A DNA stretch of 6,020 nucleotides from a virus (taxonomy: Duplodnaviria; Heunggongvirae; Uroviricota; Caudoviricetes), in IMG/VR virus record IMGVR_UViG_2778261349_000007, positions 1 through 6,020 of that record. One strand, written 5' to 3'. Each line of letters begins with the position of its first letter. Within the stretch, counting starts at the first letter, position 1. Under the pieces are notes generated by a model, which saw only the letters and a list, made by a program, of their open reading frames with translations, did not search any database and was not told the origin of the DNA. Shown here one piece after another: positions 1-6,020 of the stretch. Made by a program: the position numbers and the translations under genes.

Positions 1-1410
1 ATGAAACTGGCACCGAACGTAAAACGATTACCGAAAGACAAATACACCGATGCGATTATTTTTGCGGGTATTGATGCTCATTCATTCGCAGAGCATTACA
101 TCATTGCACAGGCCAAAAAAGCAGGCGATCCAGTCCCTCCCGTTTATCTGGGGCGTTATCAGTTAAGCGAACTGGATAACCTCCAGATTGTTGATGATGG
201 GCGATACAGGGCGACGGTGATACGCGCCGGAAATATTGAAGAGCCGCAGCTGTTAACCATCGCCACGAAACTGGCGATCGCCGGAGTCCAGGAGGCGCGG
301 CTACTTTCTGAAAATTTCGAATTGCTGGAGGAATGGAGCGACCAGCTTCCACGGCTTAGGGAGGCATGGGAACGCGGGGAAAGCCTGGTCATGAAAAAAA
401 TCCCCCAGCGAAAAACCACGCTACCGATGAGCGTTGGATCTACCGGATACGACACACAGCTTGATTACGTGGTAAAGGGGATTATTCCGGCATCGTCGCT
501 TTGCAGCATATACGGGGCGAGCGGTTCCTATAAATCATTCCTTGCCGGATCGTGGGCGTGTCACGTTTCCACGGGCCGCCAGTGGGGAGGCCGCAGGGTG
601 GCGCATGGCGCTGTTCTCTATGTGGTTGGTGAAGGCGGTATCGGCGTTCCGCGTCGTGTAAAAGCCTGGGAGGTTGTGCACGGTGAGCAGGTGAAAAATC
701 TGTATCTGGTAAACCGTCCCATCTTTCCGGCTGTCTCGCTTGATGTTGATGAACTGGTTATTGCTGCCAGTCAGGTGGAGAGGGAAACGGGTAAACCTGT
801 TCGCATGATTATTCTGGATACGCTGGCGCGTTGCTTTGGTGGGAATGATGAAAATGATTCCCGTGATATGGGGGCGTTTATCCGTGGTTGTGACGAACTG
901 AAACGGCGCACAGGGGCCACGGTGCTGGTGGTTCACCATTCCGGCAAGGATGAGACGAAAGGCGCGCGCGGTTCCAGTGCATTTCGTGCTTCGCTGGATG
1001 CTGAATACCGGATACGCAGAGAGGACGCAGGCAGCGAAGCGCTGGTTATCTCATGCACCAAAATGAAGGACGCGGAGGAACTCAAAGAAGCCGCATATGA
1101 CTTACGCGTGGTGGAGCTTTTTACCGACGCTGACGGGGAGTTAATCACGTCGCTGGTGGTGGTGGATAAGCCGCGCCCTCCCGTTGAACTGGAGCGCATC
1201 GAGGAGGCAGGGAACAAGACGGAGAATCACGCCGCGCTATGGCAGTGCATCAGAACACGAACAGCACACGGGGAGGCGTGCACTATCGCCCTTCTCCGCG
1301 ACGATATGAAAAAGCTGGGGTATGAGATGAAGCACTTCCGGCGCTGGCTGTACAAGCTGGAAAATGATGGCGTAATCGTTATTGATGGTGATGACGTGCG
1401 CCCGCTGTAA
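1..1410 (+). CDS. Replication initiator/helicase, RecA-like P-loop NTPase (RepA/AAA_25-like), 469 aa
   Basis: Long ORF with ATG at nt 1 and stop at 1408-1410. Walker A-like GASGSYKS (about nt 514-537), Walker B-like MIILDTLARCF (about nt 805-837), and VLVVHHSGKDE motif typical of RepA/DnaB-type replicative helicases of plasmids, phages and satellites. An N-terminal ~150 aa domain could be the origin-binding part. Iteron origin lies immediately downstream. Confidence 0.75.
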   Translation: MKLAPNVKRLPKDKYTDAIIFAGIDAHSFAEHYIIAQAKKAGDPVPPVYLGRYQLSELDNLQIVDDGRYRATVIRAGNIEEPQLLTIATKLAIAGVQEARLLSENFELLEEWSDQLPRLREAWERGESLVMKKIPQRKTTLPMSVGSTGYDTQLDYVVKGIIPASSLCSIYGASGSYKSFLAGSWACHVSTGRQWGGRRVAHGAVLYVVGEGGIGVPRRVKAWEVVHGEQVKNLYLVNRPIFPAVSLDVDELVIAASQVERETGKPVRMIILDTLARCFGGNDENDSRDMGAFIRGCDELKRRTGATVLVVHHSGKDETKGARGSSAFRASLDAEYRIRREDAGSEALVISCTKMKDAEELKEAAYDLRVVELFTDADGELITSLVVVDKPRPPVELERIEEAGNKTENHAALWQCIRTRTAHGEACTIALLRDDMKKLGYEMKHFRRWLYKLENDGVIVIDGDDVRPL

Positions 1411-1613
1411 AAAGTGGGGAGCAAAAGTGGGGAGCAGTGGGGAATTTAACAAAATTGAAACATAATTACCCACTTTCCCACCTGTATATACCCAAAAAAG
1501 TGGGGAGTAAAAAACATATTGAAAAACATAACGTTAGAATCACAAAAAAAAGAGGTGGGGAGACGGTGGGTAATTTCAAAAAGTGGGGAGCAAAAGTGGG
1601 GAGTGGTGGGGAA
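1411..1613. repeat. Iteron-type replication origin: about 9 direct and 2 inverted copies of AGTGGGGAG-like repeats flanking an AT-rich core
   Basis: Direct copies at 1413-1421, 1425-1433, 1435-1443, 1499-1507, 1553-1561, 1563-1571, 1582-1590, 1594-1602, 1605-1613 (AGTGGGGAG / GGTGGGGAG / GGTGGGTAA variants, 10-12 bp spacing within clusters). Inverted copies inside 1465-1480 (aattacccactttcccacc). AT-rich segment 1445-1550 between clusters. Sits directly 3-prime of the helicase gene. Confidence 0.7.
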
Positions 1614-1864
1614 TGAACAGAAAAACCAGAGATAAGACAGCGCCAAAATATAAAGCGTTAGACATGACAGAGCACGCTTTAAAGGTGGCAATCAGAACGA
1701 TAGACCGCCACGCGGGGGAAGGATACGCGAAAGAACATCCCGACCTGATAAGCGCATTCATGACCACAGCAGCGGCAAACTTTGCCACGCTGACAGAACG
1801 TGAGATTGCCGAAGCGGAACAGGTAACAACCATCAACGTTAAAACCGGAGAGGTGGAATCATGA
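1613..1864 (+). CDS. Hypothetical small protein (83 aa from ATG 1613; the ORF track starts at GTG 1583)
   Basis: ORF in frame from MNRKTRDK...; stop TGA 1862-1864 overlaps the ATG of the next gene (ATGA overlap at 1861-1864), suggesting translational coupling with ssb. Start overlaps the last iterons. No recognisable motifs. Confidence 0.5.
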   Translation: MNRKTRDKTAPKYKALDMTEHALKVAIRTIDRHAGEGYAKEHPDLISAFMTTAAANFATLTEREIAEAEQVTTINVKTGEVES

Positions 1865-2283
1865 CAGCACAGATAGCCGCTTACGGGCGGCTGGTGGACG
1901 ACCCGCAGGTAAAACAGACCAGCAAGGGCACACCGATGACGCTGGTTCGTATGGCGGTATCGCTGCCATGCAGCCAGGCACAGGACGGACAGGCGACGTT
2001 ATGGCTGTCCGTCATCGCATTTGGCAAGCAGGCCGACTTCCTGGCTAAACATCAAAAAGGCGACGTTGCCAGCGTATCCGGCACGATGCAGGTAAGCCAG
2101 TGGACAGGCCAGAACGGCGAAACGCGGCAGGGCTGGCAGGTTATCGCAGACAGCGTAATCAGTGCGAGAACGGCGCGACCGGGCGGCAAAAAAGGCCAGC
2201 AGGGGCAGGCTACTGACGCACTGAACAGGGCAAAACAACAGGCGGGTAACGATGATCCGTACGGGGATAACATACCGTTTTAA
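1861..2283 (+). CDS. ssb: Single-stranded DNA-binding protein (SSB-like OB-fold), 140 aa
   Basis: Translation aligns by eye to the E. coli SSB OB-fold (GRLVDDPQV..., WLSVIAFGKQADFLAKHQKGDVASVSGTMQVSQWTGQNGETRQ...) followed by a Gly/Gln-rich linker and an acidic C-terminal tip ...NDDPYGDNIPF resembling the canonical DDDIPF tail. Followed by a rho-independent terminator. Confidence 0.8.
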   Translation: MTAQIAAYGRLVDDPQVKQTSKGTPMTLVRMAVSLPCSQAQDGQATLWLSVIAFGKQADFLAKHQKGDVASVSGTMQVSQWTGQNGETRQGWQVIADSVISARTARPGGKKGQQGQATDALNRAKQQAGNDDPYGDNIPF

Positions 2284-2298
2284 GCAACGAGTGACAGA

Positions 2299-2321
2299 AG
2301 CCGGAGCAATCCGGCTTTTTT
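2299..2321 (+). terminator. Rho-independent terminator after ssb
   Basis: Stem agccgga (2299-2305), loop gcaa, stem tccggct (2310-2316), then a T run 2316-2321. Confidence 0.7.
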
Positions 2322-2370
2322 ACGGGTCCTCCTGGCGGGGTGGGCCTGAACACGGGGCGGAGGGGCGCGG
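2322..2370 (+). repeat. Degenerate cos-like repeat (cosQ-like acgggtcct retained, cosN core altered)
   Basis: acgggtcctcctggcggggtgggcctgaacacggggcggaggggcgcgg parallels the 4764-4812 cos copy (acgggtcctttccggcatatggacccgttacggggcggcgacctcgcgg), but the 12-nt GGGCGGCGACCT core is replaced by GGGCGGAGGGGCG. The preceding terminator hairpin is also near-identical to the one at 4741-4763. Confidence 0.5.
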
Positions 2371-2502
2371 AAAAAAGCGCATTTTTGTGGTTTTATCGTC
2401 ATCATCATCATGAGCGTAATTTATTGTTTTTAATTGTTTTGATGCAAAAAAGATGATGATTGTGGTTAATTTTCGTTCGACATCTTTGCAGGCAGATAAA
2501 AA

Positions 2503-2535
2503 AGCCCGATAAGGTCAGAGGAAACCTATCGGGCT
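2503..2535. other. Intergenic hairpin (9-bp perfect stem agcccgata / tatcgggct, 15-nt loop) flanked by an A run upstream and T runs downstream
   Basis: Stem arms 2503-2511 and 2527-2535. aaaaaa at 2497-2502 and tttt at 2535-2538 make it terminator-like on either strand. Could be a bidirectional terminator or the 3-prime end of a small RNA. Confidence 0.35.
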
Positions 2536-2616
2536 TTTGCATATGAGGTTTTTTTGGTGCACTGACACACATGATCGGGATAATCATTTCATAATTTGCA
2601 ACACAACTCAACATCA

Positions 2617-2644
2617 TTGCACAAAATGCAATCATGATTATAAT
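2617..2644 (+). promoter_or_regulatory. Candidate sigma70 promoter for the capsid operon (TTGCAC -35 at 2617-2622, 16-bp spacer, TATAAT -10 at 2639-2644)
   Basis: Near-consensus hexamers with 16-bp spacing, about 55 bp upstream of the first capsid-operon ATG (2701). Overlapped by palindromes (ATGATTATAATCAT 2634-2647 and the 32-bp palindrome 2642-2673). Sequence-only prediction. Confidence 0.45.
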
Positions 2645-2673
2645 CATAACTGGATGAACATCCAGTTATGATT
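2642..2673. promoter_or_regulatory. 32-bp perfect palindrome (15-bp arms AATCATAACTGGATG / CATCCAGTTATGATT, 2-bp spacer): operator or leader hairpin/terminator
   Basis: Left arm 2642-2656, right arm 2659-2673, exact reverse complements. Overlaps the candidate -10 and predicted +1. Followed by tttttt (2672-2677) and then the RBS AAGAGGA (2683-2689) of the first capsid-operon gene. Confidence 0.6.
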
Positions 2674-2700
2674 TTTTAAGTCAAAGAGGAATTTCTGACT

Positions 2701-2907
2701 ATGGCAGAAGAGAAAAAAGGCGGGGTGACCGTGTACATAAGCCCCGACATCGTGGAGGCGCTCAAGGAACGCCACCAGCAGAACGTAAAAGCAGGCATCG
2801 CAGCAGGACTTGATCCGCTGGCGATGGTTGAGCCGTCAACAGGCTGGCAGGTACGCGCCTATTTACGCGCGGCGCTGGGCATGAATCAGACGCATGGAGG
2901 TGAATAA
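2701..2907 (+). CDS. Hypothetical small protein (68 aa) immediately upstream of, and coupled to, the major capsid gene; possible scaffold-like or assembly factor
   Basis: RBS AAGAGGA at 2683-2689. Stop TAA 2905-2907 overlaps ATG 2907 of the capsid gene (TAATG). No recognisable motif; the function is inferred only from position. Confidence 0.55.
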   Translation: MAEEKKGGVTVYISPDIVEALKERHQQNVKAGIAAGLDPLAMVEPSTGWQVRAYLRAALGMNQTHGGE

Positions 2908-3962
2908 TGGCAGGCAAAGCAACGGCACTTAACACTAACCAGCTTTTCGCGTACCTGAATCGCGGGGATATTGCGGAATTTAAATTCAGTCCGCTGTTTA
3001 CCACGCTGTTTTTCCCGAACGTGGCGACATTCAACACCCAAAACATCATGCTGGACACCCTGGACATTGAAGAGGTTACGATGTCGGCGTTTTGTTCGCC
3101 TATGGTGGGTAGTCAGGTCCAGCGCGATAAAGGGTACGAAACCAGCACGATTAAACCTGGATACATGAAGCCGAAGCACGAAATCGATCCAACGAAAACC
3201 ATCATGCGCATGGCCGGAGAAGATCCGGCACAGCTTAACGACCCTACCTATCGCCGTATGCGCCTGATTACTGGCAATATGCGCCGCCAGGTAAACGCCA
3301 TAAAAGCGCGCGTGGAATGGCTGGCGGTAAATGCGGTAACGACCGGAAAAAACATCATTGAGGGCGAAGGCATAGAGCGCTATGAAATCGACTGGAAGAT
3401 ACCGGAAAAAAACATCATAGAGCAGGCCAAAGGCCGTAAATGGTCAGAGCAGGACAAAGAAACTCACGATCCAATCTATGATATTGAGCTTTATGCGGAT
3501 CAGGGCAATTGCCCCGCAAACGTCATGATTATGGGCGCTGAGGTATGGCGCACGTTACGCAGCTTTAAAAAATTCCGCGAACTGTACGATCTTTCCCGTG
3601 GTTCAGAATCCGCCGCAGAACTGGCCTGCAAAAACCTGGGCGAAGTAGTGAGCTTTAAAGGCTATCTGGGCGATATTGCCCTTATCGTCTATTCCGGCAA
3701 ATACGCCGACAGCGACGGCACAGAAAAATATTTCCTTGAGCCTGATTTGCTGGTCCTGGGTAACACCAACAATAAAGGGCTGGTGGCCTATGGTGCGATT
3801 ATGGATCAGGAAGCTGTAAGAACAGGCGCAACGCAAAACATGTACTACCCGAAAAACTGGATTGAGGACGGCGATCCGGCGATTGAGTACGTGCAGACGC
3901 ACAGCGCACCGCAGCCGGTTCCGGCAGATATTCGCAAATTTGTTACCGTCAAAATTGGTTAA
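2907..3962 (+). CDS. Major capsid protein, lambda gpE-like (HK97-fold), 351 aa
   Basis: Translation matches remembered lambda gpE along its length: FKFSPLFTTLFF (lambda FKFDPLFLRLFF), PGYMKPKHE (PGYVKPKHE), EDPAQLNDPTYRRMRLITGNMR (EDPQNLADPAYRRRRIIMQNMR), RGSES...LG.VVSFKGYLGDIALIVYSGKY, VLGNT..GL.AYG, YPKNW..GDPA, SAP. Length is close to gpE. Confidence 0.9.
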   Translation: MAGKATALNTNQLFAYLNRGDIAEFKFSPLFTTLFFPNVATFNTQNIMLDTLDIEEVTMSAFCSPMVGSQVQRDKGYETSTIKPGYMKPKHEIDPTKTIMRMAGEDPAQLNDPTYRRMRLITGNMRRQVNAIKARVEWLAVNAVTTGKNIIEGEGIERYEIDWKIPEKNIIEQAKGRKWSEQDKETHDPIYDIELYADQGNCPANVMIMGAEVWRTLRSFKKFRELYDLSRGSESAAELACKNLGEVVSFKGYLGDIALIVYSGKYADSDGTEKYFLEPDLLVLGNTNNKGLVAYGAIMDQEAVRTGATQNMYYPKNWIEDGDPAIEYVQTHSAPQPVPADIRKFVTVKIG

Positions 3963-3973
3963 CGGGGGATTCT

Positions 3974-4309
3974 ATGGACACTCCATACATTGAGTTATTT
4001 GCTGGCAGTCAGCAGGTATCAACGACGCTGGTACATTTTGCCGCTGATGCTGGCGTTATTCAGGAATTTACCCCGCTGATGCTGGCGGACAATGGTGAGT
4101 TTAAGCCGTGGGATGGTCAGGAATCTGGCAAGGCTGTTTATCTGACCTCGTACCCCGTGGACACGTCAAAGCAGAAATCAGCACAGTGTTACAAGACGGG
4201 GATATTTAATATCGCCGCCGTAAACTGGCCTGAGAGCGCCGACACTGACGCGAAAAAATGCGCCGCCTTTGCGGGTTCTGGCGTATCCGTTCAGCCGCTG
4301 GCGCGATAA
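3974..4309 (+). CDS. Head decoration protein, lambda gpD-like, 111 aa
   Basis: TPLMLADNGEFKPWDG, KTGIF...WPESAD..AKK.AAFAGSGVS align by eye to lambda gpD (TPLMLDTSSRKLVAWDG ... KSGTF...[21 protein letters not shown]). Size matches gpD. RBS GGGGGA upstream. Gene order E-then-D is reversed relative to lambda. Confidence 0.8.
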   Translation: MDTPYIELFAGSQQVSTTLVHFAADAGVIQEFTPLMLADNGEFKPWDGQESGKAVYLTSYPVDTSKQKSAQCYKTGIFNIAAVNWPESADTDAKKCAAFAGSGVSVQPLAR

Positions 4310-4321
4310 GCAGGGGGAACG

Positions 4322-4735
4322 ATGGCTACGAATGAAAGCATCATGGCGCTACCGCTGGCGAGTAAATTTAAAGCAGAAGCGCGGGCAATGGCTGACAGAG
4401 GTTTATCAACCTACGAGGCCGTATATCAACTCAACAGACTGGAAGAGCAGGACAAACCGCGCGCTGATGCGATTATGGCACTTGATGAATCTGGCGACTA
4501 TCAGCCGCTGCTACGTGCAATGGCAAACGTGCCTTGTATCGATGTTGGTACGGCTAAAAGCATCCTTAGCATGACCATAGAGCAGGAACGCCAGAAGGTT
4601 GCACCAGAGCTTACCGCAGCCTTTGAAAACTTTATGGACATGCACAGCCCGCAAGCCGTATCAGCAGGCATGGCATACGATGGCAGAAACCCGGGCGATG
4701 ACGGCGACATCGATCGCATACTGAAAACCATCTGA
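4322..4735 (+). CDS. Hypothetical protein (137 aa), last gene of the capsid operon; possible packaging/assembly accessory
   Basis: Good RBS (GGGGGA about 4312-4317). Ends 5 bp before a strong terminator. No motif recognised; no convincing by-eye match to lambda FI, FII or W. Confidence 0.65.
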   Translation: MATNESIMALPLASKFKAEARAMADRGLSTYEAVYQLNRLEEQDKPRADAIMALDESGDYQPLLRAMANVPCIDVGTAKSILSMTIEQERQKVAPELTAAFENFMDMHSPQAVSAGMAYDGRNPGDDGDIDRILKTI

Positions 4736-4740
4736 GACAG

Positions 4741-4763
4741 GCCGGAGAAATCCGGCTTTTTTT
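4741..4763 (+). terminator. Rho-independent terminator after the capsid operon
   Basis: Stem gccgga (4741-4746), loop gaaa, stem tccggc (4751-4756), T7 run 4757-4763. Near-identical to the terminator at 2299-2321. Confidence 0.7.
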
Positions 4764-4830
4764 ACGGGTCCTTTCCGGCATATGGACCCGTTACGGGGCG
4801 GCGACCTCGCGGTTTTTCGCTATTTATGAG
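4764..4830 (+). other. Lambda-type cos site, + orientation: cosQ-like (acgggtcctttccgg), cosN 12-nt core GGGCGGCGACCT (4796-4807), and the start of cosB
   Basis: gttacg-GGGCGGCGACCT-cgcggtttttcgctatttatga matches the remembered lambda cohesive-end region (GTTACG / GGGCGGCGACCT / CGCGGGTTTTCGCTATTTATGA), and ACGGGTCCTTTCCGG matches the lambda right-end cosQ region. Downstream (4831-4940) it diverges from lambda cosB, with no CCGTTCTTCTTC R3-like motif and a GGGTGGTGGTGGTGG run instead. It lies upstream of a Nu1-like gene, as in lambda. Confidence 0.75.
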
Positions 4831-4940
4831 CTTTTTCAGGGTGGTGGTGGTGGTTTTGTTGTTTGCTCTATCTTTATGAATAAAAAGGGAAAGATGCAAG
4901 CAATACACCAACCTGAAGCAGTAATTAAGTTGGTGTATTA

Positions 4941-5483
4941 ATGAAATCGCACCTGATGAACAAAAAAAACATGGCTAAAAGCTGCCGTGTAAGTGCGACA
5001 GCGTTCGACAAGTGGGGAGTAACTCCCGTTGAGCGTAAAGGCCGTGAGGCGTTTTATGATGTTGCCAGCGTGATAGACAATAGGGTTAACAATGCAATTA
5101 GCCAGCTTACAAACGGCAAAGGTGAGATTGATGATGATGAACTTTTACGAGTCAGGATCAGATTACTGACAGCACAGGCAGAGGCGCAGGAACTTAAAAA
5201 CGAGCGCGATCGCGGTGACGTGATTGATACAGAGTTTTGCATGTACGCGCTTTCAAAACTGGCGAGTCAGATTTCATCAATCATGGACAGCCTCCCGCTT
5301 ACTATGCAAAGGAACTTCCCACAGATTACCCCCGCCATGCTGGATAGGCTTAAAAGGGAAGTGGTTAAAGCCTGTAATGCCAGCGCAAAAGCTGCCGACA
5401 ACCTCCCGCAGATACTGGTTGCTTACCTGAATGAAACTACCGGAAACGTGCCGAAGAAGTTGCTACAGAAGAAAGGCGAGTAA
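4941..5483 (+). CDS. Terminase small subunit, lambda Nu1-like, 180 aa (start alternatively at ATG 4956)
   Basis: C-terminal two thirds align closely to remembered lambda Nu1 (LLTAQAEAQELKNERDRGDVIDTEFCMYALSKLASQISSIMDSLPLTMQRNFPQI vs LTRAQADAQELKNARDSAEVVETAFCTFVLSRIAGEIASILDGLPLSVQRRFPEL). The N-terminal DNA-binding region is more diverged (MNKKNMAKSCRVSATAFDKW... vs MEVNKKQLADIFGASIRTIQNW...). No clear SD upstream of either candidate start. Confidence 0.85.
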   Translation: MKSHLMNKKNMAKSCRVSATAFDKWGVTPVERKGREAFYDVASVIDNRVNNAISQLTNGKGEIDDDELLRVRIRLLTAQAEAQELKNERDRGDVIDTEFCMYALSKLASQISSIMDSLPLTMQRNFPQITPAMLDRLKREVVKACNASAKAADNLPQILVAYLNETTGNVPKKLLQKKGE

Positions 5484-5510
5484 CAGACGCGCAATTATTG
5501 AACAAAAATG

Positions 5511-5573
5511 AGAAAGGATCTGATAATGGCATTTTCTGGCTAAAATGCCTCGTGTCAGATCCTTTCTTTTTTT
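5511..5573 (+). terminator. Nested hairpin with T run downstream of the small-terminase gene (likely intrinsic terminator)
   Basis: Outer 13-bp perfect stem agaaaggatctga (5511-5523) / tcagatcctttct (5555-5567). Inner stem ggcatttt (5528-5535) / aaaatgcc (5542-5549) with loop ctggct. Followed by ttttttt (5567-5573). Confidence 0.6.
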
Positions 5574-5584
5574 AATGTTTTCAT

Positions 5585-5705
5585 TGTTAAACAATCTGTT
5601 ATAGAGAAGAAGAACGGATCTGACTTTTGCCAGAAAATTTTCATAAACAGATAAAATCCGCGAGGTCGCCGCCCCGTAACGGGCCATAATTCCAGGAAGG
5701 ACCCG
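5585..5705 (-). other. Second, complete lambda-like cos site in inverted orientation (cosQ-like, cosN, lambda-like cosB motifs on the minus strand)
   Basis: The minus strand reads cgggtccttcctggaattatggcccgttacg-GGGCGGCGACCT-cgcggattttatctgtTTATGAAAATTTTCtggcaaaagtcagatCCGTTCTTCTTCtct. cosN core is at 5663-5674 (forward aggtcgccgccc). TTTATGAAAATTTTC (forward 5633-5647) and CCGTTCTTCTTC (forward 5606-5617) match the remembered lambda cosB left-end sequence, including the R3-like element. It is convergent with the 4764-4830 cos, and the two flank the Nu1-like gene. Confidence 0.75.
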
Positions 5706-5738
5706 ACGACACCAGACTATCAGAACGATGGGGGCACA

Positions 5739-6020
5739 ATGACAGAAGCCGAACTACTGCGATTAATCCGTCGCGTTGCCGAAATCAGCCAGCAGGCTGA
5801 CGAACAGGCCACGCAGCCGGACAGCGTGACCGCCGAAAATTATGCGCGTGTGGTTGCTGAGGTGATGCGCCGTGACGGTATTGAGCTTAACGGCGTGGAT
5901 ATGCGCGACATACGGATCCGCGTTCTGGAAATGCTGGCCTACAATCGCCGCGTTGAACTGTATCGGGAGAAAGAAAAAATTACGTACCACTGGAAGAAGC
6001 CGGAGCGGTTACGGCGATAA
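5739..6020 (+). CDS. Hypothetical protein (93 aa)
   Basis: ORF with GGGGG SD-like run (5730-5734) 4 nt before ATG 5739; stop TAA at 6018-6020 (window end). No recognisable motif. Confidence 0.55.
   Translation: MTEAELLRLIRRVAEISQQADEQATQPDSVTAENYARVVAEVMRRDGIELNGVDMRDIRIRVLEMLAYNRRVELYREKEKITYHWKKPERLRR

Follow-up and report, generated by a model that had tools for sequence, protein, structure and literature searches.

The 6,020-nt window analyzed here (the whole stretch of IMG/VR record IMGVR_UViG_2778261349_000007, positions 1 to 6,020) is the right half of an approximately 11.3-kb phage-inducible chromosomal island (PICI) of E. coli, of the EcCICFT073 type. It carries an operon of four genes, which encode in order a 68-aa protein, a lambda gpE-type major capsid protein, a gpD-like head decoration protein and a 137-aa protein. 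The reading we favor, at a probability of roughly 50%, is that these four genes are a lambda-type head-shell module owned by the satellite, in which the 137-aa protein would be a Nu3-like internal scaffold and the 68-aa protein an orphan, and that the module is accessory to the satellite. The element and its capsid and decoration genes have already been published, and the block is a known but unexplained satellite module; what is new here is the Nu3 relationship of the 137-aa gene.

With the 137-aa protein recognized as a cut-down Nu3, the block is by homology a coherent shell set (capsid, decoration and scaffold) rather than a stray capsid gene. The assignment also gives concrete partners for explaining why satellites keep the block, and corrects the annotations 'hypothetical' and 'head-tail connector'. 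The practical consequence is modest, as the block is already a replaceable cargo slot in engineered PICIs.

The 137-aa protein and the Nu3 scaffold

In a first-pass annotation of the window, both small proteins had been called unannotatable and both had been proposed as scaffold candidates. The first statement stood for the 68-aa protein, which had no Pfam, NCBIfam or PDB match, but not for the 137-aa protein, which was homologous to the C-terminal part of gpC/Nu3. The second was borne out for the 137-aa protein by a Nu3-type repeat and C-terminal tail, but not for the 68-aa protein, where the argument from gene position was weak. The remote-homology search that had been suggested for both proteins placed the 137-aa protein in the scaffold part of gpC/Nu3 and gave only sub-threshold matches for the 68-aa protein.

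The PHROG search matched the 137-aa protein to PHROG_1999 (unknown function) and to PHROG_53 ('head maturation protease'). In the second match, residues 45-119 fell on profile positions 494-567 of 583 (E 1.4e-8), and the CFT073 orthologue behaved likewise. By the lambda and phage 21 annotations, the lambdoid S49 protease gpC shares its C-terminal end with the nested scaffold Nu3. BLASTP paired residues 49-131 with the C-terminal 80 residues of a gpC homologue from a CFT073 helper-type prophage (36% identity over 83 aa, E 1e-9), and likewise paired the 137-aa protein with the very C-terminal end of gp6, the phage 21 scaffolding protein (36% over 83 aa, E 3e-10). Lambda Nu3 aligned weakly in the same register (23% identity, E 0.038). 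A tblastn search of 50,697 phage records matched only the C/Nu3 genes of phage 21-like phages, and when hhalign was used to compare the satellite family with an alignment of Nu3 sequences from phages only, the probability was 91% (E 1e-6). No link between Nu3 and PICIs or satellites was found in the papers searched. The many matches of 131-137 aa in the Nu3-tail profile search were lambda-type Nu3 fragments and not satellite orthologues.

The phage 21 Nu3 consisted of three tandem repeats of about 41 aa (consensus IMxCxEAKGRExLAxxLAxxPGMTVExARxILAA) followed by a tail, FEHFMANHSPAAVQGG...DGDAD, and the tail pattern of the Nu3 domain was F(E/D)xFMxxHSPxAV...DGD. The 137-aa protein showed a clear last repeat and the tail FENFMDMHSPQAVSAG...DDGD, preceded by a weak second copy of the repeat (20-24% identity); the repeat alignment was ungapped. 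Natural 93-aa variants of the protein lacked residues 21-64, which is exactly one repeat unit. This deletion apparently arose by recombination between repeated 'ARAMA' segments. The AlphaFold model of the 137-aa protein was all-helical with a pLDDT of 44, too low for a fold search. Such a low-confidence all-helical model is typical of scaffolds and would be compatible with one, but is not diagnostic. A phmmer search of the PDB returned chance matches only.

On these alignments, the 137-aa protein is classed as a truncated, stand-alone Nu3-type paralogue that lacks the protease-linked N-terminal part of gpC/Nu3. Like lambda gpNu3 and phage 21 gp6, it has the last repeat of about 41 aa and the C-terminal tail (residues 45-131), is predicted to be helical and flexible, and is encoded beside E-type and D-type genes. 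Unlike them, it is encoded by a stand-alone gene 3' of E and D, whereas canonical Nu3 is read in frame from the 3' portion of the S49 protease gene and precedes D and E. We therefore filed it as a Nu3 derivative or paralogue and not as Nu3 itself. It also differs in having two repeats (one of them weak) where phage 21 has three, in its unique N-terminus, and in belonging to a satellite without protease or portal.

Some RefSeq names would make the 137-aa protein a head-tail connector instead, and several homologues are indeed named 'phage head-tail connector protein' by NCBI. However, it matched no connector family in Pfam or NCBIfam and its sole homology was to the scaffold part of gpC/Nu3, which leaves this identity hardly credible; the name probably arose because old phage 21 records read 'head-tail preconnector gp5/gp6'.

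If the 137-aa protein is a scaffold, the operon would be transcribed in the late phase of the helper from its own conserved promoter and leader. The Nu3-like tail would attach to an E-type capsid protein on its inner face; the capsid protein of the satellite itself is the likeliest partner. The helical repeats would bridge capsid subunits and so form an internal scaffold. As the island lacks portal, protease and large terminase genes, shell assembly would take place on the helper portal and maturation would use the helper gpC protease; the helper would also provide the large terminase and the tails. The gpD-like protein would then stabilize the expanded shell. Every step beyond the homology is one that we infer.

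The four-gene operon and its 68-aa first gene

The 68-aa open reading frame (ORF) had been described as translationally coupled to the capsid gene, and its TAA stop does overlap the capsid ATG as TAATG (2907). It begins with ATG behind the Shine-Dalgarno sequence AAGAGGA, and the 137-aa ORF has GGGGGA in the same role. The claim that the 137-aa ORF closes the operon was confirmed as well, since a G+C-rich hairpin and T-run start three bases past its stop. The same four coding sequences were annotated by RefSeq in seven related islands, which carry differing replication and packaging modules, and were intact in 7/7. Across these islands the mean ratio of nonsynonymous to synonymous substitution rates (dN/dS) was 0.29 for the 68-aa gene, 0.12 for the capsid gene, 0.09 for the decoration gene and 0.26 for the 137-aa gene. 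By this measure all four genes are under purifying selection and both small ORFs are real.

The four-gene block was present at at least 80% coverage in 591 of 5426 complete E. coli genomes (about 11%). Strain CFT073 carries the prototype island EcCICFT073 (Fillol-Salom et al. 2018, PMC6092414; Ibarra-Chavez et al. 2020, PMC10530653) at the same roxA/phoQ site, with four genes of equal length (207, 1056, 336 and 414 bp) whose products were 94-97% identical to those of the window (64/68, 337/351, 108/111 and 133/137 residues). In EcCICFT073 the capsid gene is c1499 and the decoration gene is c1500 (PMC6092414/PMC10530653); from gene order, the 68-aa gene would be c1498 and the 137-aa gene c1501. 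The two islands are alike in the orthologous operon with its gene lengths and order, in insertion site and in having cos downstream. They differ in that the window island has a Nu1-type terS in place of rppA, plus a RepA-helicase replication module.

Identity of the satellite capsid protein was 43% with lambda gpE and 45% with its phage 21 counterpart, and did not exceed 47% for any capsid among the 50,697 phage records, where the best matches were Gifsy-1 and phage 21-like phages. The decoration protein was 37% identical to lambda gpD and 43% to its phage 21 homologue. This distance from phage capsids, together with the absence of the 68-aa gene from the phage records, points to a long-standing satellite lineage and not a recent capture; the gpE-type capsid lineage of satellites is deep and distinct.

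We also considered whether the block no longer does anything, being either cargo that can be spared or the decaying remnant of late genes once captured from a helper. It has given no phenotype in any published assay, and engineers treat it as a replaceable 'adaptable module'. However, decay is at odds with four intact ORFs of identical gene lengths in seven diverse islands at dN/dS of 0.09-0.29, with the 591 genomes that carry the block, with its deep divergence from phage capsids and with a regulatory region conserved across genera, and we regard a functionless block as very improbable.

Capsid genes are common in Gram-negative PICIs, and the arrangement extended beyond E. coli. In an Edwardsiella tarda island (CM130058.1), a 70-aa homologue of the 68-aa protein directly preceded and overlapped a gpE-like gene, which was followed by a gpD-like gene; the island, whose primase is of the D5 type, interrupts the portal gene of a lambdoid prophage. 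The element is a helper-embedded PICI, a satellite type described by the Williams group. Over positions 1-16213 the Edwardsiella locus reads int, AlpA, D5 primase, 70-aa gene, capsid and decoration genes, directly 5' of the truncated portal gene (257 aa). Beyond the truncated portal gene lie S49 protease, D, E, FI and other head and tail genes, so that the E and D genes of prophage and satellite are duplicated side by side. A Pluralibacter island with a DUF927 primase showed the same arrangement of 68-aa-type, capsid and decoration genes with the same overlap. No ORF was found at the expected place of the 137-aa gene in the Edwardsiella island and no homologue of it was detected in the Pluralibacter island, and the conserved core is for this reason taken to be the 68-aa, capsid and decoration genes. 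Two Pluralibacter genes were checked and set aside: a 77-aa gene as a mimic of the Nu3 tail was unsupported (BLASTP E 0.34-0.47, no PHROG_53 match), and a 139-aa gene resembled the N-terminus of a small terminase (Rpp-like) and not the 137-aa protein.

Around the block, the neighboring modules varied. The position downstream of the same capsid block was occupied either by a Nu1-type small terminase gene (window, IHE3034 and O157) or by a 144-aa RppA-type gene (CFT073 and CU568-3; 2660-3094 of the comparison locus, opposite 4941-5483 of the window), and the adjacent replication module was of the RepA helicase or the DNA primase family. The terS/rppA swap and the varying replication module indicate modular shuffling around a constant capsid block.

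The 68-aa protein fell in PHROG_3255, a family of unknown function. An indexed search returned 32 clusters of its family, all from Enterobacterales. An exhaustive profile search of 1.84 billion representatives returned 15, one of them spurious: a long 586-aa match that was a repetitive zinc-finger-like eukaryotic protein. No match was found by tblastn in the 50,697 phage records at E up to 1, and neither BLASTP nor the family hidden Markov model (HMM), run with filters off, related the protein to any head protein of lambda or phage 21. Lambda gpW, which is also 68 aa long, was tried as a relative and gave no match by either BLASTP or the family HMM.

The AlphaFold 2 model of the 68-aa protein had a beta-alpha-alpha order with a pLDDT of 73. 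The sole recurring Pfam matches were RHH_1 (in 5/13 members) and BrnA, and the ribbon-helix-helix (RHH) profile scores lay below threshold (RHH_1 best E 0.064, 12 bits against a cut-off of 20.5; BrnA E 0.12). The RHH proteins TraM, ParD, omega and NikA were among the weak structural matches of the model. As modeled, the protein shares with the RHH (CopG/Arc/MetJ) class the beta-alpha-alpha order of elements and an N-terminal pattern like VTVYISPDIVEALKERH; it differs in its long inter-helix loop and in that all scores were below threshold. The last codons of the 68-aa gene, CAT GGA GGT GAA (CATGGAGGTGAA, within 2890-2907), double as the Shine-Dalgarno sequence of the capsid gene. The conserved C-terminal HGGE of the protein is encoded by CATGGAGGTGAA, and its invariance may reflect a translation signal rather than protein function.

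Alternatively, capsid-specific assembly could depend on the 68-aa protein instead of the 137-aa protein. The 68-aa protein would then be a small scaffold or chaperone whose synthesis is matched to that of the capsid protein by translational coupling. In three genera, and combined with three different replication modules, its gene always lies 5' of the satellite capsid gene and overlaps it stop to start, also where there is no 137-aa gene; it is satellite-specific and similar in size to the 72-aa CpmB of SaPI1. However, it showed no similarity to any scaffold or head protein, its model of one beta strand and two helices with weak RHH-like matches is not that of an elongated helical scaffold, and the linkage could merely reflect its place as first gene behind a conserved promoter. 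We consider it unlikely that the 68-aa protein takes this role in place of the 137-aa protein. That its gene stays strictly linked to the capsid gene in different genera would suit a capsid cofactor and an operon regulator alike. The 68-aa protein is most likely a satellite-confined orphan that would form a small RHH-type dimer and serve as an operon regulator, acting on the TGCA motifs or the hairpin described below, or as a capsid cofactor.

Published assays, capsid size and other satellites

Several observations weigh against the reading of the four genes as a head-shell module with a 137-aa scaffold. The scaffold role of the 137-aa protein rests on homology, and its Nu3 tail is only presumed to be a capsid-binding element, by analogy with other scaffolds. 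The 137-aa protein would not be an obligatory partner of the satellite capsid protein, because its gene was not found in the Edwardsiella and Pluralibacter islands. Deletion of c1499 or c1500 left transfer and lambda interference unchanged, and the authors report no c1499 phenotype; the standard marker tetA sits at c1501 and the island still transfers; and islands in which c1498-c1501 were replaced by cas9 or melA were still packaged and transduced by phi80 delta-cosN (PMC6092414/PMC10530653). When the post-ori genes were expressed from pBAD18, c1503 (rppA) alone inhibited lambda, and its deletion restored plaquing. With lambda, phi80 and the CFT073 helper prophage, transfer and interference do not require the module, and no effect on capsid size was seen. 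The 68-aa and 137-aa genes were not analyzed singly in the published EcCICFT073 studies (PMC6092414, PMC10530653).

These data bear directly on the proposal of the first-pass annotation that the two small proteins are candidate determinants of capsid size. Put in concrete terms here, one or both of them and the satellite capsid would force T=3 or T=4 shells for one or two 11.3-kb copies, like SaPI1 CpmB or SaPIbov5 Ccm. The satellite has its own capsid homologue and a shortened scaffold that shares the tail of the helper scaffold, in formal terms the same situation as with CpmB. Scaled by volume, a lambda-like shell of T=3 would have room for about 13-14 kb, and the island is 11.3 kb long; PmCI172, a Gram-negative PICI with a capsid homologue, has been published to make small capsids. 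However, when EcCICFT073 was induced with lambda all packaged DNA was phage-sized (PMC6092414/PMC10530653), the capsid and decoration deletions were silent and the block could be replaced by cargo; four copies of the island would amount to 45.2 kb, a full lambda-sized headful. The deletion and transfer assay that had been suggested has thus largely been done already on the sister island, and was negative for transfer, interference and size. Size determination is not supported by these data, and we regard size redirection as quite improbable. It is weakened only, because the assays covered lambda, phi80 and one CFT073 prophage as helpers of an Rpp-type island, whereas the island of the window is of the TerS type. 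The cosN region and the Nu3-like tail of the window match phage 21-type lambdoids best.

Interference offers another role for the 137-aa protein, that of a decoy that spoils helper head assembly, its Nu3-like tail blocking the scaffold site on the helper's capsid or tying up the helper's gpC protease. Its tail is 36% identical to those of phage 21-type helpers, whose cos the island shares, and its truncation drops the Nu3 parts upstream of the last repeats. However, with helpers not of the phage 21 type, interference with lambda was accounted for by rppA, whose deletion alone fully restored plaquing, and the island marked at c1501 still interferes; a decoy is distinctly unlikely.

It is also conceivable, although we think it unlikely, that the 68-aa, capsid and decoration genes, with or without the Nu3-like gene, work as a 'half capsid kit' with a phage 21-type helper. 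The satellite would then build its own shells on the helper portal, possibly smaller than T=7, with the 137-aa and 68-aa proteins as assembly or size factors and the operon switched on at its conserved promoter and terminator leader through antitermination by a Q-type factor of the helper or an AlpA-type factor of the satellite. Were this so, the island would stand in evolution as an intermediate, with classical PICIs on one side and capsid-forming PICIs (cf-PICIs) on the other. Like the window island, cf-PICIs encode their own capsid proteins (bioRxiv 10.1101/2022.09.08.507074). They have a full set with portal, protease, head-tail connectors, TerS, TerL and HNH (bioRxiv 10.1101/2022.09.08.507074), whereas here there are a capsid protein, a decoration protein, a scaffold fragment and TerS; the 11.3-kb island lacks the portal, protease, connectors and TerL of its own by which cf-PICIs are recognized.

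SaPIbov5 is likewise a cos-packaged satellite with a homologue of the helper major capsid protein, Ccm (PMC8569155). Ccm is described as redirecting capsid size and shape and as interfering with the helper, whereas deletion of the EcCICFT073 capsid gene affected neither.

CpmB of SaPI1 is a small helical internal scaffold of a satellite whose C-terminus resembles that of the helper scaffold; it reportedly acts on the helper capsid protein and yields T=4 capsids. The 137-aa protein resembles it as a small helical satellite protein with a helper-scaffold-like C-terminus. It differs in that the satellite here brings its own capsid protein, small capsids were not observed with the orthologous island and there is no sequence relationship. 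By analogy, the 137-aa protein may be regarded as the conceptual parallel of CpmB minus the evidence for size control.

Regulatory region and map of the island

The features of the window are listed in the table below.

Table. Features of the 6,020-nt window and the evidence for each.
Feature	Position	Strand	Evidence or remark
RepA/AAA_25 helicase	1-1410	+	ORF map, family scans
93-aa ORF	between helicase and SSB genes	+	ORF map
SSB	1861-2283	+	ORF map, family scans
AT-rich gap, GC about 0.40	2390-2640		after the replication genes
Promoter-like region	2594-2644	+	perfect TATAAT 2639-2644, weak -35 TTGCAC 2617-2622, three TGCA(A/C) motifs
Perfect inverted repeat, 15-bp arms, then T-run	2642-2679	+	22 nt 5' of the 68-aa start
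68-aa ORF	2701-2907	+	orthologue of EcCICFT073 c1498 (number assigned by gene order), orphan family
Major capsid protein, lambda gpE family, 351 aa	2907-3962	+	Pfam Phage_cap_E 1.8e-50
Head decoration protein, gpD/SHP-like, 111 aa	3974-4309	+	Pfam HDPD 1e-17
137-aa ORF	4322-4735	+	orthologue of EcCICFT073 c1501 (number assigned by gene order); PHROG_1999 and PHROG_53
Nu3-type repeat (about 41 aa) and C-terminal tail (FENFMDMHSPQAVSAG...DDGD)	4454-4714	+	residues 45-131 of the 137-aa protein
Intrinsic-terminator-like G+C-rich hairpin and T-run	4739-4765 (hairpin and T-run 4739-4758)	+	closes the operon
cos site	4760-4841	+	matches R4-cosN-I2 of phage 21-type lambdoids; context, outside the operon
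Nu1-type small terminase subunit, 180 aa	4941-5483	+	Pfam Phage_Nu1; context
93-aa ORF	5739-6020	+	ORF map

The promoter-like region upstream of the 68-aa gene is the putative promoter of the operon; a consensus promoter scan missed it because its -35 is weak. The TGCA(A/C) motifs ATTGCACA and AATGCAAT are placed between the -35 and the -10, and the motifs were invariant in an alignment of the E. coli, Edwardsiella and Pluralibacter islands. The hairpin that follows folded as RNA at -14.4 kcal/mol (z = -4.8), and in the Pluralibacter leader the hairpin and U-run were kept with a different sequence; we read it as a terminator-like or operator-like element of the leader. The upstream region as a whole (2594-2679) was conserved, with counterparts at about 7860-8000 of the Edwardsiella locus and at about 7860-8000 and 3007-3091 of two other loci. 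The layout resembles that of phage 21 pR', with Q-binding direct repeats (ATTGAGCA and AATGAGCA) and a promoter-proximal terminator, and this likeness suggests that the satellite capsid operon may be controlled by Q-type or AlpA-type antitermination.

By megablast the window was 98% identical to stretches in E. coli chromosomes. In strain 2015C-3905, the island lies between roxA and phoQ, starts with a tyrosine integrase gene and an alpA-type helix-turn-helix (HTH) gene, and is bounded by a 21-bp direct repeat whose copies are 11,295 bp apart. Its genes comprise int, the alpA-type HTH gene, the RepA helicase and SSB genes, the capsid module, cos and terS; no portal, protease, large terminase, tail or lysis gene was found in the 11.3-kb island by gene map and family scans. 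All genes of the window are on one strand. Such an architecture is that of the Gram-negative PICIs of Fillol-Salom et al. 2018 (PMC6092414). The island has int, the alpA-type regulator, a replication module with an AT-rich region, packaging genes in one direction with cos, and the expected size and att repeats (taken as about 10-20 kb, with att repeats at the ends and without lysis or tail genes).

The AT-rich gap lies where replication origins were mapped in PICIs, and contains short direct and inverted repeats (ATCATCATC / GATGATGAT) and two copies of TTTATTGTTT. Two more terminator-like hairpins lie at 2300-2322 and 2493-2545. At the other end of the operon, cos lies between the 137-aa gene and terS and contains the exact lambda cohesive-end sequence GGGCGGCGACCT at 4796-4807; R4-cosN-I2 of phage 21 is conserved, and the cosB part has diverged. 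The Nu1-type terminase was 34-36% identical to lambda Nu1 and phage 21 gp1. An identity as Rpp was rejected for the 180-aa and 93-aa proteins, which had no PDB match to Rpp structures. An 11-bp inverted repeat (AATACACCAAC / GTTGGTGTATT) lies within 4902-4939, immediately 5' of terS, and may be where the TerS of the satellite itself binds.

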